Source: Elusimicrobia bacterium RIFOXYA2_FULL_39_19
Lineage (GTDB): Bacteria > Elusimicrobiota > Endomicrobiia > CG1-02-37-114 > XYA2-FULL-39-19
Assembly: GCA_001800285.1 (NCBI GenBank)
Contig: MGVC01000014.1
Span: 1,756-65,755, forward strand
Reading direction: 5' to 3'
Length of the DNA stretch: 64,000 bases
This document shows positions 3,774 through 49,255 of this stretch, piece by piece (the first letter of the stretch is position 1; each line of letters starts with the position of its first letter). A program made the position numbers and the translations under genes. The notes beneath the pieces are model-generated. The model was given only the letters and a program-made list of their open reading frames with translations, was not told the DNA's origin and did no database searches.

Positions 3774-3909
3774 TAACGGGCATAAGACCCGTCTTGCTTA
3801 ATTGCTATATTAAGTTTATAAGATTATAAGTTGATAGGTTGATATGGTAATATTTGTTTTCTGTCCGTTCTTATCAACTTATCAACATATCAACCATTTA
3901 TCATCTATA

Positions 3910-24697: not shown

Positions 24698-25567
24698 TTA
24701 CTGAGAAAGAAATGATTTTAATTCGTCGTCTTTGGGGTTTAGCTTAAAAGCTTCGCGCCAAACTTGTATGGCTTTTGATTTTTTATTAAGTGCATAATAA
24801 GCCGACCCTAAACGTTTCATGGCCATAGCATTGGATGGTTCAAGTTCTAAAACACTATTGCATTCTACTATAGCTCTGTCATATTTAGCATCGTAAATAT
24901 AATTTAATGAAGCTACTAATTTCTGTTCTACCAGGGTCATTCCTGGCACAACCTCCACCGCTTTCAGCTGGTTGGGGTACTCTTCTTCAATCACGTTGAC
25001 AAATTTTTCAATCCTACCATCCGAAGGGTTTAACTGGCCTGCATAAATTATGGAATGCAGAGCAGTTTTAAACTTTGCGCTGGGTTTAATGTATTCCCTC
25101 ACAGCAAACCTTATTAATTTGCCGTTTTTTGTTTGAGCTGTTTCATCGCCGAAAGCTTCCTGGATTTTTCTTATTTTACCGTAAAGTTTTTTTAATTCCG
25201 TGTTATTTGGTGAGGTTTCCAGTGCGGTTTTCATATTGCTTAAAGCATCGGTATACCTGCCGGCATTGTAACTTTCCTCAACACTTTTTAGGACTTTGCT
25301 GTATTTTTCCATCAATTTCTGTTTGGCAAATTCTATAAGTTTCGGCGGCTGTACCTGTGTAGGGTCCAGTTTTAAAATCTGTTCCCAGTAAGAAATGGCT
25401 TTGCTGAAATCATTGGCCTGAAAGGACCTTATGGCAGTATCATAGTACGCTTTTATTAAACTCTGTTTTTCTTTTTCTGATAATACTTTTTCCTGCGCAA
25501 AAACATTTGCACCGGTAATTATCGGAATAAGCATAATTGCTAAAAATATTTTAGTTTTTCTTTTCAT
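24698..25567 (-). CDS. Periplasmic TPR-repeat protein with a signal peptide. It overlaps the upstream motB-like gene by 17 nt, which suggests translational coupling.
   Basis: 289 aa with an N-terminal signal peptide (MKRKTKIFLAIMLIPIITGANVFA). It has repeated TPR-like A..Y...G.Y..A helix pairs. Confidence 0.7.
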   Translation of the reverse strand: MKRKTKIFLAIMLIPIITGANVFAQEKVLSEKEKQSLIKAYYDTAIRSFQANDFSKAISYWEQILKLDPTQVQPPKLIEFAKQKLMEKYSKVLKSVEESYNAGRYTDALSNMKTALETSPNNTELKKLYGKIRKIQEAFGDETAQTKNGKLIRFAVREYIKPSAKFKTALHSIIYAGQLNPSDGRIEKFVNVIEEEYPNQLKAVEVVPGMTLVEQKLVASLNYIYDAKYDRAIVECNSVLELEPSNAMAMKRLGSAYYALNKKSKAIQVWREAFKLNPKDDELKSFLSQ

Positions 25568-26243
25568 CTTTTTTATCGCTTTTCCCCTGGCTTCTTAAAA
25601 TACTTATTTCAATTCTTCTATTTTTTGCGCGGCCTTCTTCCGTATCATTGGATTCCAAAGGATGAAACTCGCCGTAACCATAAACAGTAAAACGTTTTGA
25701 ATCTATTTTTTCTTCGTCCATAAGATATTTTATTACGCTAAAAGCCCGGGCTGCGGATAATTCCCAGTTTGAATCATACTTTCCCACTCCGGCTCTTACC
25801 GGAATGTTGTCCGTATAACCTTCTACTACAATATTATTCGGCATGTCCTTTATAATTTTCGCTATGCCTGACAAACTTTTTGCCGCTTCCGGTTTTAAAG
25901 CCGCTTCACCTGAATTATAAAGCACGGGTGCCGGCAGGGATATTTTTATTCTTTGAGAATTAATTTCTATTCTTGCAGTATCCTGCAGTTCGGATGACAA
26001 TTTATTTGCTGCGTCCGATTCTTTTGATTTCTGGCTGGCATCTTCATCTACCTTGCCACCCATGGCTGACTGTACGTTTGAAAGCAGTTTTTCTGACTCC
26101 AGACCCCCCATTGCTGATACGGAGTATAACAATAGGAAGAAGATCATTAAAGTAGTTATCAGGTCAGCATAAGGGACAACCCAACTGGATGGGTCATAAA
26201 GTGCCCTTTTATCTACCTTACCGCCAATATCTCCACCAGACAT
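25551..26243 (-). CDS. motB: MotB/OmpA-family stator protein, paralog 1. It has a single TM with the conserved Asp and a C-terminal peptidoglycan-binding OmpA-like domain.
   Basis: N-terminus ..VVPYADLITTLMIFFLLLY matches the MotB TM/plug region with the essential Asp. The C-terminus ..VVEGYTDNIPV..SNWELSAARA..NRRIEISIL matches the OmpA/MotB peptidoglycan-binding domain. A GAGG Shine-Dalgarno sits 11 nt upstream of the ATG. Confidence 0.8.
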   Translation of the reverse strand: MSGGDIGGKVDKRALYDPSSWVVPYADLITTLMIFFLLLYSVSAMGGLESEKLLSNVQSAMGGKVDEDASQKSKESDAANKLSSELQDTARIEINSQRIKISLPAPVLYNSGEAALKPEAAKSLSGIAKIIKDMPNNIVVEGYTDNIPVRAGVGKYDSNWELSAARAFSVIKYLMDEEKIDSKRFTVYGYGEFHPLESNDTEEGRAKNRRIEISILRSQGKSDKKDEKKN

Positions 26244-26247
26244 AAAT

Positions 26248-26552
26248 AAAACCTCAAGTTTTATTTACCCAGACGCTTTGGTTTTTTAAGCCGCATGGTG
26301 CGGATGAAAAACCAGTCAGGGTATAAAACCTCAATTTCCTTTACCCAGACGTTTTGGTTTTTTAAGCCGCATGGTGCGGATGAAAAACCAGTCAGGGCAT
26401 AAAACCTCAATTTCCTTTACCCAGACGTTTTGGTTTTTTAAGCCGCATGGTGCGGATGAAAAACCAGTCAGGGTATAAAACCTCAATTTCCTTTACCCAA
26501 ACGTTTTGGTTTTTTAAGCCGCATGGTGCGGATGAAAAACCAGTCAGGGTCA
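26248..26552. repeat. Tandem array of four ~76-77-bp direct repeats (>90% identical). Each unit contains an imperfect hairpin: ggtttttt-aag-CCGCA-tgg-TGCGG-atg-aaaaacc.
   Basis: Units begin at 26248, 26325, 26401 and 26477. They are contiguous with no unique spacers. They lie in the 400-bp gap between the two motB paralogs. Unit 1 supplies the Shine-Dalgarno/leader of motB paralog 1. Confidence 0.85.
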
Positions 26553-26573
26553 TAATTTCAAAAAGTGATTAAG

Positions 26574-26640
26574 TGATTAGGTTGTTAAGTGGTTAGTAAA
26601 TTATTTTAACTAAACACTAACCACTTAATCACTATTCACT
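26574..26640. repeat. Imperfect palindrome. The core is a 13-bp perfect inverted repeat, ttaagtggttagt (26586-26598) and actaaccacttaa (26616-26628), with flanking gtgatta direct repeats.
   Basis: Seen directly in the sequence. It lies immediately 3' of the motB paralog 2 stop and 5' of the tandem repeat array. Confidence 0.6.
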
Positions 26641-26645
26641 ATTTT

Positions 26646-27305
26646 TTATCTAATTACATTTATTTCAATTCTTCTGTTTTGTGCCCTGTTTTCGGGTGTA
26701 TCGTTCGGGTAAAGGGGCCTGAACTCGCCATACCCTGCCACTATAAACTTTTCTGACGACATTCCCTTTACTTTGGTAAAATAGTCAATTACACTTACAG
26801 CCCGGGCAATAGACAATTCCCAGTTGGTTGTATATCTCCCCGCTTTTAACGGTATATTATCAGTATGCCCTTCAACAACAACTTTATTGGGCAGTGCTTT
26901 CAGAGACTTGGCTATTTCATCTAATCCCAACGCTGTTTCTTTAGTAATTTCTACTTTACCTGTTTCAAAAAGCACAGGAGAAGTAAGCAGGATACGTATC
27001 ATTTTATCATTAACTTCAAGTTTTGCCAGTTTATCCAGTTTTTCTTTTTCTGAATCCAGCTTGCTTACCGCTTCCTGTTCCTGAATCTGCTTTAAAATTC
27101 TTTGGGCGCGGTCCGTCATGGCGGCATCCTTGCTTACCATGCTGGTTAGGGCAGACTGAATATTAGTTCTTTTGCTTTCATCCATACGGGTAAAAGCATA
27201 GGACATTAGAAAGAACAAAGTCAGGTTTGTAATAATATCCGCATATATTGTCAGCCAGATGGAACTTTGCTGCATTATTCTTACCGGCCGTTTACGTTTT
27301 TTCAT
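26646..27305 (-). CDS. motB: MotB/OmpA-family stator protein, paralog 2.
   Basis: N-terminus ..SSIWLTIYADIITNLTLFFL is a MotB-type TM with the conserved Asp. The C-terminus ..VVEGHTDNIPLKAG..TNWELSIARA..NRRIEINVIR is the OmpA-like domain. Confidence 0.8.
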   Translation of the reverse strand: MKKRKRPVRIMQQSSIWLTIYADIITNLTLFFLMSYAFTRMDESKRTNIQSALTSMVSKDAAMTDRAQRILKQIQEQEAVSKLDSEKEKLDKLAKLEVNDKMIRILLTSPVLFETGKVEITKETALGLDEIAKSLKALPNKVVVEGHTDNIPLKAGRYTTNWELSIARAVSVIDYFTKVKGMSSEKFIVAGYGEFRPLYPNDTPENRAQNRRIEINVIR

Positions 27306-27369
27306 GATTAACGAACAATGTTAGGGGATTAATTTATTGTTTATGGGCAAATAAGTTTGCCCTTATATT

Positions 27370-28149
27370 TTATAACTTGCTGTTAGCCAGCGACTGTTCT
27401 CTTAAGATTGCAGATAAATAACCCTCAAGTTTTTTTGCCGTTATTACAGGCACATCACCTTTATGAATTGAAACAATGCCTTCAGTAATGAGTTCCATGT
27501 TAAGAATTTCATCTTCACTGTATTCAGACAGTTTTACAGCAACGGGTAAAAAAGCAAAATTAGCGGCAAATATGCCGAAAAATGTAGCAGCCACAGCTGT
27601 TGCCATAGCGGCACCCATGGAAGTAGGGTCGGTAATATTTCTTAATACCTGCACAACACCCAGCAGGGTTCCCAGCAATCCGAAAATAGGCGCTACAGTA
27701 GCCATCATTCTAAATACGCTGGCAACTTTCTGATGCCTTTCTCTTACGTACAAAATTTCTTTTTCCAGATTGTCTTCGATAATGTCTATATCGTAACCGT
27801 CTATGAGCATTTGCAGGGCATTTCTAAAGAACTTGTCTTTTAATCCGGCTACTTCAGGCTGGAGGCCGGAAAACCCTGAACGTTTGGATTTTTCTGAAAG
27901 GCCTACAACAAGTTCTATCATTCTCAAAGATGATTCTCTTTTATTTGGGAAGAAAGCCAGACTGAAAGCCTTAGGTATGGCTTTGATAGTTGTCCAGGGA
28001 TAAGCAATGAGAGTAGAGGAAAGAGTACCTATTACAACCAGCAGAAACGCATCAAGATTAAACAACATATGCACAATTTCACCGCGCGCCATGACTATGT
28101 AAATTGCAACTACTCCGATAATTGCTCCGCCAACCGTTAACAAATCCAT
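27370..28149 (-). CDS. motA: MotA/PomA-family proton-channel stator protein. It has four TM segments with a large cytoplasmic loop between TM2 and TM3.
   Basis: 259 aa. The TM1-TM2 pair sits at the N-terminus. A ~100-aa charged loop (..RESSLRMIELV..) follows. Conserved prolines are present in TM3 (TVAPIFGLLGT) and TM4 (AFLPVAV), as in MotA. A GGGGGA Shine-Dalgarno lies upstream. Confidence 0.85.
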   Translation of the reverse strand: MDLLTVGGAIIGVVAIYIVMARGEIVHMLFNLDAFLLVVIGTLSSTLIAYPWTTIKAIPKAFSLAFFPNKRESSLRMIELVVGLSEKSKRSGFSGLQPEVAGLKDKFFRNALQMLIDGYDIDIIEDNLEKEILYVRERHQKVASVFRMMATVAPIFGLLGTLLGVVQVLRNITDPTSMGAAMATAVAATFFGIFAANFAFLPVAVKLSEYSEDEILNMELITEGIVSIHKGDVPVITAKKLEGYLSAILREQSLANSKL

Positions 28150-28171
28150 TTATTTTCCCCCAAAAATATTT

Positions 28172-29608
28172 TTAAATAAGTTCAATTATGCCTTCGGCAT
28201 TTAATTTTCTTATGCTTTCAATAACCCGGCGTTTTTCTTCGATGATTCTTTGTGCTGATAAAGGTTTACCCAACTCCATTTCCTGTTGAAGCCTTTTTCT
28301 GCCGGCTTCAGTAAGCGCTTCCATGATTTTTGCTGTATATTGTTCCGGCATGGTTTTAAGAATCTGCGCAAAAGCTGAAAGATTTATCCTGCGCATAACG
28401 GTTTGCAGAGTTTCACCGCTGAAATTGACTATATCCTCAAAACTGAAGACGGATTTCATTAATTTGGCTGCAAGGGGCGGATTCTTGGCCTTAAAATTAG
28501 CAATGATTTTGTCCTGAGTTGCTTTATCGCTGTAATCAAGCAGTTTAACAAGTATTTCATCACCGCCAAGAGAATAATTAAGGGTGTCTCTAACTTTCTG
28601 TTCAAGGGATTTTACAGCGTCAGGGTCCATCTGTTTCACGTTTGAAAATAATTCGGATACTTTCATTTTCTGATCCGCATTTAAATCAGCAAACAACTTG
28701 GAAGCCATATCTCTGTCAATGTAATTTAGAATTACCGCTATGTTTTCAGAACTTTCTGTTTTAATTGATTCTCTTAACTGATTTATTTCCTGAGGGACAA
28801 TAAACCAGAATGGTTTTCTGTTTTCACTATCGTGAGATAAAGATGCAGTCTGAGCTGACGCAGTTTCTACGGAAGTTGACTGCTGGTTTTGCGCGCCAAA
28901 ATCCTGACTTGAAGTGTTTGCTTCTTTTTGGGCCGCTACCAGTCCGGCAATAACTTCTACCAGGCTTTTTGAAAATATTTTAAATGGATTGAACAAAAAC
29001 AATACTGAGCCGAAAACAAAAAATGTTGCAAGGGCAATTATAATAACCCAGTATAGATTAGGCGGATAAAGCAGAGAATACCAGTAAAAAGGATTTTGTT
29101 TAAAATTCATTCTTTCAATTATCAGCTGGTCCCCGCGGGTTTCATCGATACCCAGTAACCCGAAAGCCACTTTTTTCATAATTTCTATCACGCTTGCGGA
29201 GACAGCTTTATCAACTATAATGGTTGCACTGATTTTCTTTATGGCGGTTTTTGTTTTTCCTATATCCAGCGGCGCTAATAAATCCTCTATTTTTCTTTCT
29301 CCGATATTTTCTTTAACAGGCACTCCTGGCAGTACCATTTTAGGCCGTTCATCAACAGTTTTAATCTGAAGTTCCTTTTTTTCTTTTTCACTGTACATCT
29401 CTGTATTGATGATAATGATAATTTTTTCCGTACCGGCAATTTCAGTAAGAACCTTTCTTAACCTGTCTTCCAGGCTTGTTTCTATCTGGATTTTTGTTTC
29501 AATACTGGTTTCGGCAATATCCGCCGCAAAGATTTGTTTGGGAGCCTGAAAAACCAACAATGAAGCAAAAATAAATAGCGCCACGAACTGATAAAACCTT
29601 TTTTTCAT
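28172..29608 (-). CDS. Membrane-anchored protein with FliG middle + C-terminal-like (FliG_MC / MgtE_N-like) domains. It has a signal peptide, a ~170-aa N-terminal domain and a central TM segment; the FliG-like region is C-terminal and presumably cytoplasmic.
   Basis: The C-terminal ~230 aa align to the FliG M and C domains. The segment NIAVILNYIDRDMASKLFADLNADQKMKVSELF matches the EHPQ-region ARM repeat. The segment ..KLMKSVFSFEDIVNFSGETLQTVMRRIN..LAFAQILKTMPEQYTAKIMEALTEAGRKRLQQEMELGKPLSAQRIIEEKRRVIESIRKLNAEGII resembles the FliG_C MFvFEDI..D..iq.vlrev...LalALkg...elrek....mskRaaemlkedle.lgpvrl.dve.aq..I. Signal peptide is MKKRFYQFVALFIFASLLVFQA. TM is VIIIALATFFVFGSVLFLF. An AGGAGA Shine-Dalgarno is present. 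Confidence 0.7.
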   Translation of the reverse strand: MKKRFYQFVALFIFASLLVFQAPKQIFAADIAETSIETKIQIETSLEDRLRKVLTEIAGTEKIIIIINTEMYSEKEKKELQIKTVDERPKMVLPGVPVKENIGERKIEDLLAPLDIGKTKTAIKKISATIIVDKAVSASVIEIMKKVAFGLLGIDETRGDQLIIERMNFKQNPFYWYSLLYPPNLYWVIIIALATFFVFGSVLFLFNPFKIFSKSLVEVIAGLVAAQKEANTSSQDFGAQNQQSTSVETASAQTASLSHDSENRKPFWFIVPQEINQLRESIKTESSENIAVILNYIDRDMASKLFADLNADQKMKVSELFSNVKQMDPDAVKSLEQKVRDTLNYSLGGDEILVKLLDYSDKATQDKIIANFKAKNPPLAAKLMKSVFSFEDIVNFSGETLQTVMRRINLSAFAQILKTMPEQYTAKIMEALTEAGRKRLQQEMELGKPLSAQRIIEEKRRVIESIRKLNAEGIIELI

Positions 29609-29733: not shown

Positions 29734-30009
29734 CTATTCCATAATTTTGAAATTGCTGGTGTCTTCCGGAATTAAAGCAGGGAATTTGTTTGGTACTACC
29801 CTTACTTTCCAGCCAAAGGAATCTTTGACAGCGTATTTATCTATTGATGGTATATTTTCATTGCCCATGCAAAAAGGGCATTCTGACAGGTATGAAGGTA
29901 AGTCTTTTTTTACTATTTTTTTATCTGAAAAATCTTTCGGTCTTTTTGCTCTTTCGGTAGCGATAATAACCCATTCTCTTACTGCTATATTCTGTCTGAG
30001 TTGAGGCAT
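29734..30009 (-). pseudogene. N-terminal fragment (91 aa) of a galactose-1-phosphate uridylyltransferase (GalT/HIT-like) family gene. It is truncated after the zinc-binding CPFC region.
   Basis: The fragment ..REWVIIATERAKRP...CPFCMGNE...VVPNKFPAL matches the GalT N-terminus. Full-length members are ~320 aa and carry a downstream HxH active site. Here the ORF stops after 91 aa, and no continuation exists in any frame before the next gene. Confidence 0.45.
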
Positions 30010-30286: not shown

Positions 30287-30290
30287 TCAC

Positions 30291-30362
30291 GCCCCCATCG
30301 ACTAGCGGTTAGGTCATCGCCCTTTCAAGGCGGTAACACCAGTCCGAATCTGGTTGGGGGCG
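30291..30362 (+). tRNA. tRNA-Glu (anticodon UUC), 72 nt, no encoded CCA.
   Basis: Cloverleaf folded by hand. Acceptor GCCCCCA/TGGGGGC. Anticodon stem TCGCC/GGCGG with loop CTTTCAA. T-arm ACCAG-TCCGAAT-CTGGT. The overall sequence is close to bacterial tRNA-Glu(UUC). A T-run follows. Confidence 0.85.
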
Positions 30363-30485
30363 TTTTTTTATTTTTATAGGCTACCGCCGCAGAAAGGCGA
30401 TACGCCCTTTCAAGGGTTGCAATGCGACGAATAAGGAGCATTGGCTGCAACGGGTTCGAGACGGTGAGAACCCTGGGCCGAAGGC

Positions 30486-30523
30486 TAACACCAGTCCGAA
30501 TCTGGTTGGGGGCGTTTTTTTAT
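30486..30523 (+). repeat. 38-nt direct repeat of the tRNA-Glu 3' portion (variable loop, T-arm, 3' acceptor strand, discriminator and T-run). It is identical to 30334-30371.
   Basis: The exact string taacaccagtccgaatctggttgggggcgtttttttat occurs twice, 152 nt apart. The intervening 114 nt also contain a second copy of cgccctttcaagg. Confidence 0.8.
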
Positions 30524-35871: not shown

Positions 35872-35988
35872 TTCTTTCTCCCTTTTTTTGTTGATATATT
35901 TATAAGTTTATACGATGATACGCAAAAGTCTAATTTTAAACCAGCTGTTACTTATCATCTTATCCACTTATAAACTTATCAGTTGTTT

Positions 35989-38180: not shown

Positions 38181-39875
38181 TTACATTATCAAATCTTTAT
38201 GTTTTGTAAGGGTAATATCTAAGGCCAGGTTTAAATATCTGTAATCTTTATTGAGCTCATCCCAGGACAAATATTGAAGCGATATTTTTGCGTTTTCCAT
38301 TATTGCAGTGATATTTGACATAAAATCTTCCGAATGAACATTTGCTTCCGGCGGAGGTCCGATTACCACCGTAATGCTTACTTTATTTGTTTTGCATAGT
38401 TCAGAAAACATATTGTAATTCATTTTTGAATTACCAATATAACTTCTGTCAAATACGCTTTCCAGCCTGAATTTAAGATTATGTTTTTTAATAACGTCCC
38501 TGAATTTTTCTTTAGCTTTAATAAGTTCCTGTTCTTTGCCTTCCGGAAAGAAAAAAACAATATCAATGGCCCTTAGGTTTTTGTCTACTCCGTCTATTTC
38601 AACCGGTTTTTGAACCGCTGTAATAGGAACTTGCGCGGCTTGCGGGGGCTTTACAGGTGCCAGCGTTGGGGCAGGTTGTGGTTTTACAATTGGCTGAACC
38701 GGTACTGAATAAACCTGGGCAGGCGGTTGAGGTGTAATTTGCTGCACTTCCGGCGACGGAGCTTCATCTTCCGGATCGTTCGGCAATAAATCTTTCATCA
38801 ATGATTTTACCATTTCCATATCAACAGTCTGATTTGTTATAGAAGCATAAGCATTGATTCTTTTTAAAAATCCTTCTAATTCCCTTATGTTTGATTTTAA
38901 TTTTGAAGCAACATATAAAAGCATATTATCATCAAGATTTACCTGTTCCGTCTCACCTTTTCTTTTCAAAATAGCTACACGGGTTTCAAGTGACGGTGAC
39001 TTTATGTCCGCTATTAAACCCCATTCAAACCTTGATTTTAGCCTGTCCTCAAGGGTAGTCAGCTGCTTAGGTGGCCTATCACTTGTGAGCACAATTTGCT
39101 TCCCGCTCTGGTGTAAAATATTAAATGTATGAAAAAACTCTTCCTGTGTTGATTCCGATTCGGCAAGAAACTGGATATCATCTACTAAAAGCAGGTCCAT
39201 CTGGCGGTACCTGTCTCTGAATTGTGCAAGAGTACCGCGCCCGATTGAATCTATAACTTCGCTTATGAATTTTTCCGATGTTACATAGAATACTTTCAGG
39301 TCCGGGTATTTTTTGCAAGCAAAATGTCCTATAGCCTGCATAAGGTGTGTTTTGCCCAGGCCTACTCCGCCGTAAATAAAAAGCGGATTGTAAACTTTCC
39401 CAGGATTTTCTGCTACAGCCATGCCGGCGGCATGGGTAAAACGGTTGCTTGAACCGACTACAAATTCTTCAAATGTGTATTTTGCGTTCATTGACAATTT
39501 AAAGAAATCATCATTTCCTGAAACAGCTTTTTGGCGGGCAGGAGTTGTTGTTTCCGGCTGAGGAACCTGAGCCGGCGGTTCCGGAATCGGATTGGGTGCA
39601 GCAGGAAGGGGCACATCCGGGATAACTGCTTTTTGAGGCTGGGTTGATTTGTCTGTTAAAATATTTCTTAAATCATCAAGCTTCTGGTCATTTAAATCAT
39701 AAATATAAATACCGAAATTATATTCATCACTGAAAGAAGCAAAGGGACGGCCGCTGTCGACTTTTAATGCCTGAAGCAGATCATTTAGTTCTTCTTCAAC
39801 AATTCTGATTTTCAGGCGGTACCTATTTTTATCTTTATCGCTGGGTGAATGTGCAAGTTCAAATTTTTCAAGCAT
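38181..39875 (-). CDS. DnaA-like AAA+ ATPase lacking the C-terminal DNA-binding domain IV. It carries instead a Pro-rich linker plus a ~120-aa C-terminal domain of unknown function.
   Basis: Core ..NAKYTFEEFVVGSSNRFTHAAGMAVAENPGKVYNPLFIYGGVGLGKTHL..LLVDDIQFL..SNIRELEGFL shows the DnaA domain III Walker A/B and sensor 2. No HTH/DnaA box-binding region follows sensor 2. The Pro/Gln-rich segment ..PQPPAQVYSVPVQPIVKPQPAPTLAPVKPPQAAQVP.. follows, then a domain homologous to the C-terminus of the 39881..40858 product. Confidence 0.7.
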   Translation of the reverse strand: MLEKFELAHSPSDKDKNRYRLKIRIVEEELNDLLQALKVDSGRPFASFSDEYNFGIYIYDLNDQKLDDLRNILTDKSTQPQKAVIPDVPLPAAPNPIPEPPAQVPQPETTTPARQKAVSGNDDFFKLSMNAKYTFEEFVVGSSNRFTHAAGMAVAENPGKVYNPLFIYGGVGLGKTHLMQAIGHFACKKYPDLKVFYVTSEKFISEVIDSIGRGTLAQFRDRYRQMDLLLVDDIQFLAESESTQEEFFHTFNILHQSGKQIVLTSDRPPKQLTTLEDRLKSRFEWGLIADIKSPSLETRVAILKRKGETEQVNLDDNMLLYVASKLKSNIRELEGFLKRINAYASITNQTVDMEMVKSLMKDLLPNDPEDEAPSPEVQQITPQPPAQVYSVPVQPIVKPQPAPTLAPVKPPQAAQVPITAVQKPVEIDGVDKNLRAIDIVFFFPEGKEQELIKAKEKFRDVIKKHNLKFRLESVFDRSYIGNSKMNYNMFSELCKTNKVSITVVIGPPPEANVHSEDFMSNITAIMENAKISLQYLSWDELNKDYRYLNLALDITLTKHKDLIM

Positions 39876-48790: not shown

Positions 48791-49255
48791 TTATCTTTTG
48801 TATCTTTTTACCAAACTATCCCTGCGAACTTCACGTTCTATGTCACGCTCTTTCAACATTTCTCTTTTATCAGGACCTTTTTTTCTGGTAGAAAGCGCTA
48901 TTTCTAGTTTTGCTATGCCATCATTGTTAAAATATAACTCAACCGGTATCAAGGTAAAACCCCGCTGACTGGTTTTTCCCAGTAATTTATTAATTTCCGT
49001 ACGATGCATAAGAAGTTTTCTTTTTCTTTTTGGGTCAAATTTGAAATGCCCTGAATATTCATAGGGAGCAATATGCATATTATATACAAACAATTCGCTT
49101 CTTTCTACCATACAGTAACTGTCCTGCAGATTGGCCCCGCCGTTACGGACAGACTTCACCTCGCTACCGTTAAGGACAAGCCCCGCTTCGTATTTTTCAA
49201 TCATATTATAATCATGAAAAAACTTTCTGTTTGTAACAATAGTTTTTTTATCCAT
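48791..49255 (-). CDS. smpB: SsrA-binding protein SmpB.
   Basis: 154 aa. ..IVTNRKFFHDYNMIEKYEAGLVLNGSEVKS..GFTLIPVELYF.. is the SmpB signature. Confidence 0.85.
   Translation of the reverse strand: MDKKTIVTNRKFFHDYNMIEKYEAGLVLNGSEVKSVRNGGANLQDSYCMVERSELFVYNMHIAPYEYSGHFKFDPKRKRKLLMHRTEINKLLGKTSQRGFTLIPVELYFNNDGIAKLEIALSTRKKGPDKREMLKERDIEREVRRDSLVKRYKR

Follow-up and report, generated by a model that had tools for sequence, protein, structure and literature searches.

REP/BIME sequences, such as those in the malE-malF spacer of Escherichia coli, are imperfect palindromes in operon spacers that form stable RNA hairpins and are classically regarded as protecting the upstream mRNA; REPs are 20-40 nt long, number in the hundreds at dispersed sites and frequently switch orientation from one copy to the next. 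The MIRUs of Mycobacterium tuberculosis are found at about 40 loci and contain small ORFs that overlap the stop and start codons of the neighbouring genes. In the senX3-regX3 spacer of this species, MIRUs lie in direct tandem between two co-oriented genes of one operon, with three identical units of 77 bp in H37Rv and two units of 77 bp plus one of 53 bp in CDC1551, and their number thus differs between strains (PMC4213456). These units have been proposed to stabilise the upstream mRNA and to control downstream translation (PMC7884335), and the spacer that they occupy has documented promoter activity and drives regX3 (PMC4213456). Here we compare with these systems a tandem array of hairpin-forming units that separates two motB paralogues in a genome of the Elusimicrobia.

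The array was studied in a window of 64 kb, by which we mean the whole stretch of DNA that was analysed. A protein of Elusimicrobia bacterium RIFOXYA2_FULL_39_19, a metagenome-assembled genome from the Rifle aquifer, matches the product of the downstream paralogue, MotB-b, at 100% identity. All genes in the neighbourhood of the array lie on the minus strand, and they comprise, in the order of transcription, a gene for a 478-aa FliG-like fusion, in which a FliF C-terminal-like segment is joined to FliG middle and C-terminal domains (FliF_C/FliG_MC; 28172-29608), the gene for MotA (27370-28149), the two motB paralogues, a TPR protein gene (24698-25567) and a giant ORF of 6863 aa (3910-24501). 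The upstream paralogue motB-a (26646-27305, 219 aa, stop TAA at 26648-26646) matches the Pfam families OmpA (1.7e-21) and MotB_plug (2.1e-7), and the downstream paralogue motB-b (25551-26243, 230 aa) matches MotB_plug and OmpA. The C-terminus and stop of the former and the start of the latter, MSGGDIGGK, are kept in relatives. The intervening spacer is 402 nt in length. The earlier note had placed the array inside a motility operon, which over-reads the locus: beyond the FliG-like fusion, MotA and the two MotB proteins, no other flagellar genes were found in the 64-kb window, and most free-living Elusimicrobiota are reported to have such orphan motAB and fliG homologues though they are without flagellar structural genes, the role of MotAB being called unclear (bioRxiv 10.1101/2022.07.08.499144). 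The label of a motility operon is, for this locus, unproven.

Between the motB-a stop and the array lies a long AT-rich imperfect hairpin of 87 nt (26559-26645, minus strand), an inverted repeat with a predicted energy of -25.6 kcal/mol (z -5.4), whose 5' arm is built of four 8-nt words, AAGTGATT (recovered by Tandem Repeats Finder, TRF, as an array at 26563-26595), and which is followed by a run of five U residues at 26564-26560. In its modelled fold it looks like a terminator or an mRNA-end stabiliser. It was not flagged by a consensus terminator scan, which found no terminator-like site anywhere in 26244-26645, and it is absent from the motB-a/motB-b spacers of the closest relatives.

From this hairpin up to 2 nt before the conserved ATG of motB-b, the spacer is filled by the array, which TRF places at 26246-26555 with a period of 76, 4.1 copies, 96% matches and a score of 567, and which is the sole array with a period above 27 in the whole window. 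The same 76-nt register was obtained by a separate repeat search of the window, and the 34-nt hairpin core GGTTTTTCATCCGCACCATGCGGCTTAAAAAACC occurs exactly four times in the window and not at all in 100 shuffles. A tandem repeat between the motB genes, directly 5' of motB-b and ending just before a start codon that relatives use too, is therefore real, as the earlier note had proposed. Its unit of about 77 bp needs a small correction, for the period is 76 rather than 77, and the unit starts given there are in the same phase with a shift of 2 nt. In transcript order on the minus strand the units occupy 26550-26475, 26474-26399, 26398-26323 and 26322-26246, with lengths of 76, 76, 76 and 77 nt, and TTAT is found at both borders of the repeat unit. 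Pairwise identity is 97.4-98.7% within the three upstream units and 93.5-94.8% between these and the start-proximal one; such high values bear out the recent expansion that the earlier note had read from the sequence.

On the sense (minus) strand each unit is predicted to fold into a hairpin of 56 nt (-22.2 kcal/mol, z -2.7 against shuffles) with the layout ACCC.GAC-GGUUUUU..CCGCA-loop-UGCGG..AAAAACC..GUC.GGGU, an imperfect palindrome with the termini ACCCTGAC...GTCTGGGT. The hairpin previously described in each unit is thus present in all four, but it is longer than was claimed, the ACCC/GGGU and GAC/GUC pairings extending its core to 56 nt. Directly 3' of each upstream hairpin follows an open linker of 20 nt, AAAGGAAAUUGAGGUUUUAU; in unit 1, the 5'-most in the transcript (26475-26550), the hairpin spans 26550-26495 and the linker 26494-26475, in unit 2 (26399-26474) the hairpin spans 26474-26419 and is followed by its linker, with GAGG at 26408-26405, and in unit 3 (26323-26398) the hairpin, again with a linker behind it, spans 26398-26343. 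The linkers are predicted to be partly unpaired, and three AAGGA motifs (at 26492, 26416 and 26340) and four GAGG motifs are distributed across the array. The leader as a whole folds far better than its shuffles (z -8.3), largely because one hairpin is repeated four times. Unit 1 has a stem substitution, C51U, and unit 3 has another, A1G, which replaces the initial A of the unit by a G and gives a G.U closing pair; both result in G.U pairs on the sense strand, and this compatibility with wobble pairing hints, as a pattern of sequence, at constraint at the RNA level, in a sample of only two events for which the chance is about 0.25.

The start-proximal unit 4 (26246-26322, 77 nt) differs from the others in its linker. 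Its hairpin (26322-26267) is followed by AAAUAAAACUUGAGGUUUUAU, which lacks GGA, so that the statement that every unit carries GGGTAAAGGAAATTGAGG holds for three units but not for this one, which reads GGGTAAATAAAACTTGAGG and is likewise without GGA. As the earlier note had recognised, it is this unit that supplies the real Shine-Dalgarno (SD) sequence of motB-b, a GAGG that precedes the ATG by 8 nt. With the two U residues that come after it, the linker of unit 4 is predicted to form a weak A-U hairpin of 10 bp, AAAUAAAACU-UGA-GGUUUUAUUU (26244-26266, minus strand; -5.5 kcal/mol), which ends just before the ATG at 26243 and holds the real GAGG (26255-26252) half in its loop and half in its stem. 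At the border between units 2 and 3, the A1G substitution creates an AUG (26400-26398) 4 nt after the GAGG of unit 2, and the resulting GAGG-UUUU-AUG-CCC-UGA contains a two-codon mini-ORF, AUG-CCC-UGA, at 26400-26392.

The array does not look like a coding repeat. Its period is not a multiple of three (3x25+1), every frame contains stops, and the only database ORF that matches a read-through of the array is a gene call at the same locus, so we regard it as non-coding. ORFs of 26-51 aa do run across it, linked to one another through TTGA overlaps; the chain starts behind the 87-nt hairpin and stops 8-17 nt short of the motB-b ATG, touching neither flanking gene, and a search of 5.8e9 protein clusters with the read-through ORF matched only that 48-aa JGI call. 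Several other candidates were considered and discarded. ARAGORN finds no tRNA or tmRNA at the array that could account for a unit of 76 nt, and a CRISPR array is contradicted by the repetition of the whole 76-nt period, the identity of the supposed spacers and the lack of cas genes nearby. Judged from sequence alone, attC-like and iteron readings were discarded along with the CRISPR one, on the grounds of mismatched R'/R'' cores, a 76-bp spacing with identical spacers and a lack of associated genes.

The exact MotB-b protein is also encoded by eight other contigs, taken from assemblies of NCBI, JGI, ENA and Logan and all of the same population, whose flanks outside the array are at least 99.97% identical to the window. 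The array is present in all eight, and its copy number, which the earlier note had thought might vary, disagrees among them. The JGI contig L004 has the same four units as the window; the MEGAHIT contig L002 has three and lacks the G-start unit 3; L001 and L005 have scaffold gaps of 100 N within the array; and L003 and L006-L008 end inside it. The Logan contigs L003 and L007 start exactly where the diverged last unit turns unique, and the partial contigs L006 and L008 show the junction between the G1 unit and the last unit. The array may comprise three, four or more copies, and the differences may represent real variation within the population or collapse in assembly. That the repeat itself is real follows from the distinct unit variants, which independent assemblers have placed in one and the same order.

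Orthologous FliG-like/MotA/MotB/MotB/TPR loci were compared on nine relatives' contigs, from about six lineages with 50-84% protein identity. The gene order FliG-like, MotA, MotB, MotB, TPR is kept in these other Elusimicrobia, whereas their motB-a/motB-b spacers measure only 7-107 nt against 402 nt here. For a MotB-b identity of 84% (L009-L012, RIFOXYB2_FULL_48_7) the spacer is 56 nt, for 82% (L013) 39 nt, for 80% (L014/L015) 7 nt, for 78% (L024) 55 nt, for 54% (L017/L018) 12 nt and for 50% (L019) 107 nt. Nothing like the unit or the AT-rich hairpin was found in any of these loci by blastn-short or by alignment of the spacers, and therefore the array is lineage-specific; its fourfold reiteration is, by this comparison, private to the population. 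A conserved regulatory leader, as the earlier note had envisaged, is not what the relatives show, since those with a MotB-b 78-84% identical have spacers of 7-56 nt without an array. An alignment of the last unit to the relatives' spacers extends over no more than the SD and the start: the start context ATG TCT/AGY GGN GGA GAT and the SD are kept across relatives, and TGAGGTTTT, immediately before the start, is common to L014. The ATG-proximal part of the unit is in this way native sequence, for which reason the amplification is best placed in situ. Hairpins that are not homologous to the unit precede the SD in some of the relatives' spacers, with -28 kcal/mol (z -5.6) in L010 and -25.6 kcal/mol (z -3.3) in L019; the hairpin of L024 is weak (-13.4 kcal/mol, z -1.3), and RNA folding gave none for the spacer of L013. 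Set beside these, the amplified module looks like a local version of a recurrent inter-cistronic layout of hairpin plus SD, as far as predicted folds can suggest it. Given the recurrence of hairpins between motB paralogues, a role of the module at the RNA level, and hence of module dosage, is possible.

Four other explanations of the array can be weighed against amplification in place. That it is an artefact of assembly, with a single unit at the true locus, is scarcely credible: the assemblies do disagree (three units, four units or gaps) and short-read contigs do break within the array, but at least three distinguishable variants (T51, G1 and the diverged last unit) are joined in an identical order by NCBI and by JGI, whose assemblies are independent, the G1-unit/last-unit junction is recovered on two partial contigs, and the Logan contigs start where the last unit turns unique, as a true repeat would produce. 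The earlier note had named such an artefact, together with units scattered at many loci, as what would undo its reading, and the independent assembly of the locus in eight contigs speaks against the former. A further possibility, which we think unlikely, is that a small palindromic element of the interspersed type (REP/BIME-, MITE- or MIRU-like) inserted into the spacer and occurs at other loci too, the array being one tandem cluster of it. Most of the unit is indeed a 56-nt imperfect palindrome with the termini given above, and the whole 402-nt spacer is an insertion relative to the relatives. Against this, searches of the window that allowed up to 3 mismatches or used blastn-short turned up no second copy, and none is found in about 10 kb of extra flanks (L020 and L022), which brings the coverage to about 74 kb of a genome of probably several Mb; when both the unit and the AT-rich hairpin were compared by blastn-short with the window and with all 24 loci, this locus alone was matched, a hit of 14 nt inside smpB (48965-48978) being taken as chance. 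Scattering at many loci was thus not seen in the roughly 74 kb and the related loci searched. An exact 28-mer gave no match in a set with one genome per GTDB species, a weak negative in that the source genome is not among them and a protein-based scan of the set found no relative either; an exact 20-mer gave none in viral contigs and, in JGI metagenome contigs, one match on the GC-rich contig L016 with unrelated flanks, which is chance, and this negative is also weak, a known JGI contig having been missed by the scan. Elements of the MIRU kind have a density of about one locus per 100 kb, and because a low-density family of this sort would often show no second copy in about 74 kb, the absence of further copies there would be unremarkable. 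The size of the units, their position inside an operon and their tandem layout also mirror the 77-bp MIRU units of senX3-regX3 (PMC4213456). On the other side, the 5.8e9 protein clusters include no other called ORF that runs through a unit of this kind, a target-site duplication is not seen, and the unit holds a native SD context (TGAGGTTTT) that is common to a relative.

A selected platform at the RNA level, which would set the output of motB-b, the TPR gene and the giant gene by binding a regulator (CsrA-like or other), by RNase processing or stability, or by ribosome stand-by or decoy, would find its material in the partly unpaired linkers with their three AAGGA and four GAGG motifs, in the excess folding of the leader, in the wobble-compatible stem substitutions and in the non-homologous hairpins that recur in the relatives' spacers. 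We nevertheless consider it improbable, since even relatives with 84% protein identity lack the array, no Rfam family matches and the high z-score comes largely from the repetition of one hairpin. As for its CsrA form, known CsrA targets have been characterised by an A(N)GGA that overlaps the SD or lies near it (between -30 and +5 relative to the start), by three or more binding motifs and by two or more pairs of sites 10-60 nt apart (PMC4066749). The array provides three AAGGA motifs, but its start-proximal unit reads GGGTAAATAAAACTTGAGGTTTTATTTATG, with no GGA near the true start, and its primary sites are 76 nt apart in the linear sequence, so that it departs from two of these three sequence criteria; moreover, the GGA of the units sits in the linker and not in a hairpin loop, and a motif scan of the six-frame translation of the 64-kb window revealed no CsrA-like ORF. 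The binding platform for CsrA suggested earlier is therefore not supported, and neither is the attenuator suggested with it: the unit hairpins are followed by AAAGGAAAU without a U-run, the only U5 tail belonging to the AT-rich hairpin upstream, and Rfam 15 gave no relevant match in a permissive search of 25000-28000 or at the gathering threshold over the whole window, the sub-threshold matches (wcaG with 19 bits, where the gathering score is 42, and, for the AT-rich hairpin, a plant miRNA model) being of the kind expected by chance. Very improbable, finally, is an internal promoter in each unit, by which transcription would resume beyond the terminator-like hairpin and so reach motB-b, the TPR gene and the giant gene. 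It could draw on the hairpin and U5 that precede the array, and on the promoter activity documented for the MIRU spacer (PMC4213456), but promoter searches of the array (a sigma-70 scan with scoring, a sigma-54 GG-N10-GC scan and inspection by eye for sigma-28) gave nothing above chance. Inside the unit, the best sigma-70-like match reaches 8/12 without the key -7 T; a site at 26561, on the border between hairpin and array, reaches 9/12 without the -11 A; and for the GG-N10-GC of each unit, comparison with the sigma-54 consensus gives 6/12, a score that ranks low among the 309 chance sites of the window. The consensus scan, which yielded no site in the array, does find canonical promoters elsewhere in the window, such as one of 11/12 before tRNA-Glu.

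The array is probably, in our judgement, a young, lineage-specific intergenic minisatellite that arose by amplification in situ of a leader module made of a hairpin and an SD sequence; it is not a dedicated, conserved regulator. The ancestral spacer would have contained the long AT-rich hairpin and then one module of roughly 77 nt, composed of the 56-nt stem-loop and a purine-rich tail with the SD of motB-b. This module would have been duplicated in place, after which the copy adjacent to the ATG came to differ by about 5%; the upstream one may then have been amplified again, by slippage or by unequal recombination between units, to give three to four or more near-identical copies. Two rounds of duplication fit the data because identity is graded, at 97-99% within the upstream three units and about 94% to the last. 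Presumably transcribed together with motB-b, the array would yield an RNA with four stable hairpins parted by open linkers of 20 nt, three of which would be decoy SD-like sites, one of them with the two-codon mini-ORF, and only the last unit would serve the real start. Possible side-effects would include a longer and more structured inter-cistronic spacer, altered coupling between the two motB genes, buffering or protection of mRNA ends, and ribosome stand-by, with ribosomes soaked up or pre-loaded. The array could also modulate motB-b, the TPR gene and the giant gene in a manner that depends on its copy number.

A more far-reaching version of this idea would be a copy-number rheostat, in which gain and loss of 76-nt units with their hairpins and decoy SD sites, or a MIRU-like internal promoter, tunes motB-b, the TPR lipoprotein and the 6863-aa surface protein in sub-populations, or uncouples them from the FliG-like protein, MotA and MotB-a. 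We regard this as speculative and quite unlikely; if true, it would give an orphan rotor-stator module a switch of the contingency type, in a phylum that is non-flagellated. Taken as a minisatellite at the strain level in an uncultured groundwater Elusimicrobia genome, the finding is of little weight. Its practical value is one of caution, the locus being mis-assembled or broken in most short-read assemblies, and it might serve as a strain marker. Should the copy number truly vary and alter the expression of the downstream stator, TPR and giant-protein genes, the array would represent a MIRU-like regulatory VNTR internal to an operon outside the mycobacteria. The surroundings are of more interest than the repeat, consisting as they do of a conserved module of a FliF/FliG fusion, MotA, two MotB proteins and a TPR protein in a phylum that is mostly without flagella.

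Comparison with described systems helps to place the array. With CsrA/RsmA leaders and the CsrB/RsmZ sponge RNAs it shares reiterated GGA motifs in a structured RNA and a link to genes of the motility type, but it differs from them in having no GGA at the real SD, sites spaced 76 nt apart in linkers and no csrA in the window, and in not being conserved. The resemblance to REP/BIME lies in the imperfect palindrome in an operon spacer that forms a stable hairpin; unlike them, it has a hairpin of 56 nt and four direct copies, at the one locus where the unit was seen. Generic bacterial intergenic minisatellites (VNTR) are similar in every essential: a recent tandem repeat of a 10-100-bp unit, high identity, a copy number that either is unstable or resists assembly, and a lack of conservation between species. 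The array belongs to this general kind, with the particularity that the amplified unit is here a leader module of hairpin plus SD.

Within this kind, the closest correspondence is with the mycobacterial MIRUs. Here three to four direct tandem units of 76-77 bp lie between co-oriented motB paralogues on the minus strand, in counts that differ between assemblies. Direct tandem units of 40-100 bp, as in MIRUs, are found (period 76, 4.1 copies), and so is their position in a spacer between co-oriented operon genes, in a gene order that is kept in relatives. The copy number of MIRUs differs between strains; here the assemblies give three copies, four copies or gaps between flanks at least 99.97% identical, which may reflect either real variation or collapse in assembly. 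Whereas MIRUs are defined as interspersed, no second locus occurs in the roughly 74 kb covered here, and whereas the ORFs of MIRUs overlap the flanking genes, the TTGA-linked ORF chain of the array touches neither. The organisms belong to different phyla, and the likeness is one of architecture. By this analogy, the best counterpart of the array is the MIRU-VNTR of the mycobacterial senX3-regX3 spacer, which it resembles in architecture as a MIRU-like array and not as a member of the family.

Across Elusimicrobia, the contigs of relatives L009-L015, L017-L019 and L024 repeatedly carry the conserved five-gene module that occupies positions 24698-29608 of the window, comprising a fusion of FliF_C-like and FliG_M/FliG_C domains, MotA, two MotB paralogues and a TPR lipoprotein. 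The fusion protein has 478 aa and includes a signal/TM segment in addition to the FliF_C-like and FliG_M/FliG_C portions. Directly downstream lies a giant gene, a single 6863-aa ORF on the minus strand (3910-24501), which is preceded by a promoter-like site (TTGACT-17-TATTAC) at about 24620-24590, contains many internal repeats of roughly 290-300 nt each, and gives faint fn3/Ig-like matches. The order of TPR gene and giant ORF also occurs in L013 and L024; no giant ORF follows the TPR gene in L014, L017 or L019.

Three genes of the window (the giant gene, motB-a and recJ) each have an AT-rich imperfect hairpin directly 3' of the stop codon (3815-3909, 26559-26645 and 35885-35988, respectively, all minus strand), and another is found in L019 (4894-5000). 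These hairpins are 85-105 nt long, with folding energies of -19 to -31 kcal/mol (z -3 to -7), and their arms are composed of 7-8-nt words (TGATAAGT, GTGATTAA, GGTGATAT). Only one of these long hairpins has a U-run, and they may represent a 3'-end element typical of the lineage. The gene beside recJ (38181-39875, minus strand) encodes 564 aa and includes a DnaA ATPase domain, but no match to the DnaA C-terminal domain was listed at E<=1e-5; typical DnaA proteins are shorter.

Ahead of the FliG-like gene sits a 91-aa remnant of galactose-1-phosphate uridylyltransferase (29734-30009, minus strand), consisting of the N-terminal part only, where relatives L009 and L014 have a full-length enzyme of 324-333 aa. 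The remnant appears to be a truncated pseudogene, and the region has therefore experienced several small rearrangements. In L024, a 78%-identical relative, motB-b (804-1492) is called as two ORFs of 95 and 131 aa; the split reflects either a sequencing error or a frameshift that has turned the gene into a pseudogene. On the plus strand, a tRNA-Glu gene (30290-30363) is accompanied by a partial second copy (the pair spanning 30290-30523): the final 30 nt of the gene and the first 8 nt of the T-rich tail behind it reappear without mismatch 152 nt later (38 nt; 30334-30371 = 30486-30523), and between the two copies lies a fragment, CGCCCTTTCAAGG, resembling the tRNA-Glu anticodon arm. Possible origins of this arrangement are duplication of part of the tRNA gene, a scar left by integration, or disruption of a second tRNA gene.

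No further flagellar genes were found near the five-gene module in the loci across Elusimicrobia. Most free-living Elusimicrobiota are reported to lack flagella yet retain motAB/fliG homologues whose role is unclear (bioRxiv 10.1101/2022.07.08.499144). The module may function as a minimal rotor-stator machine.
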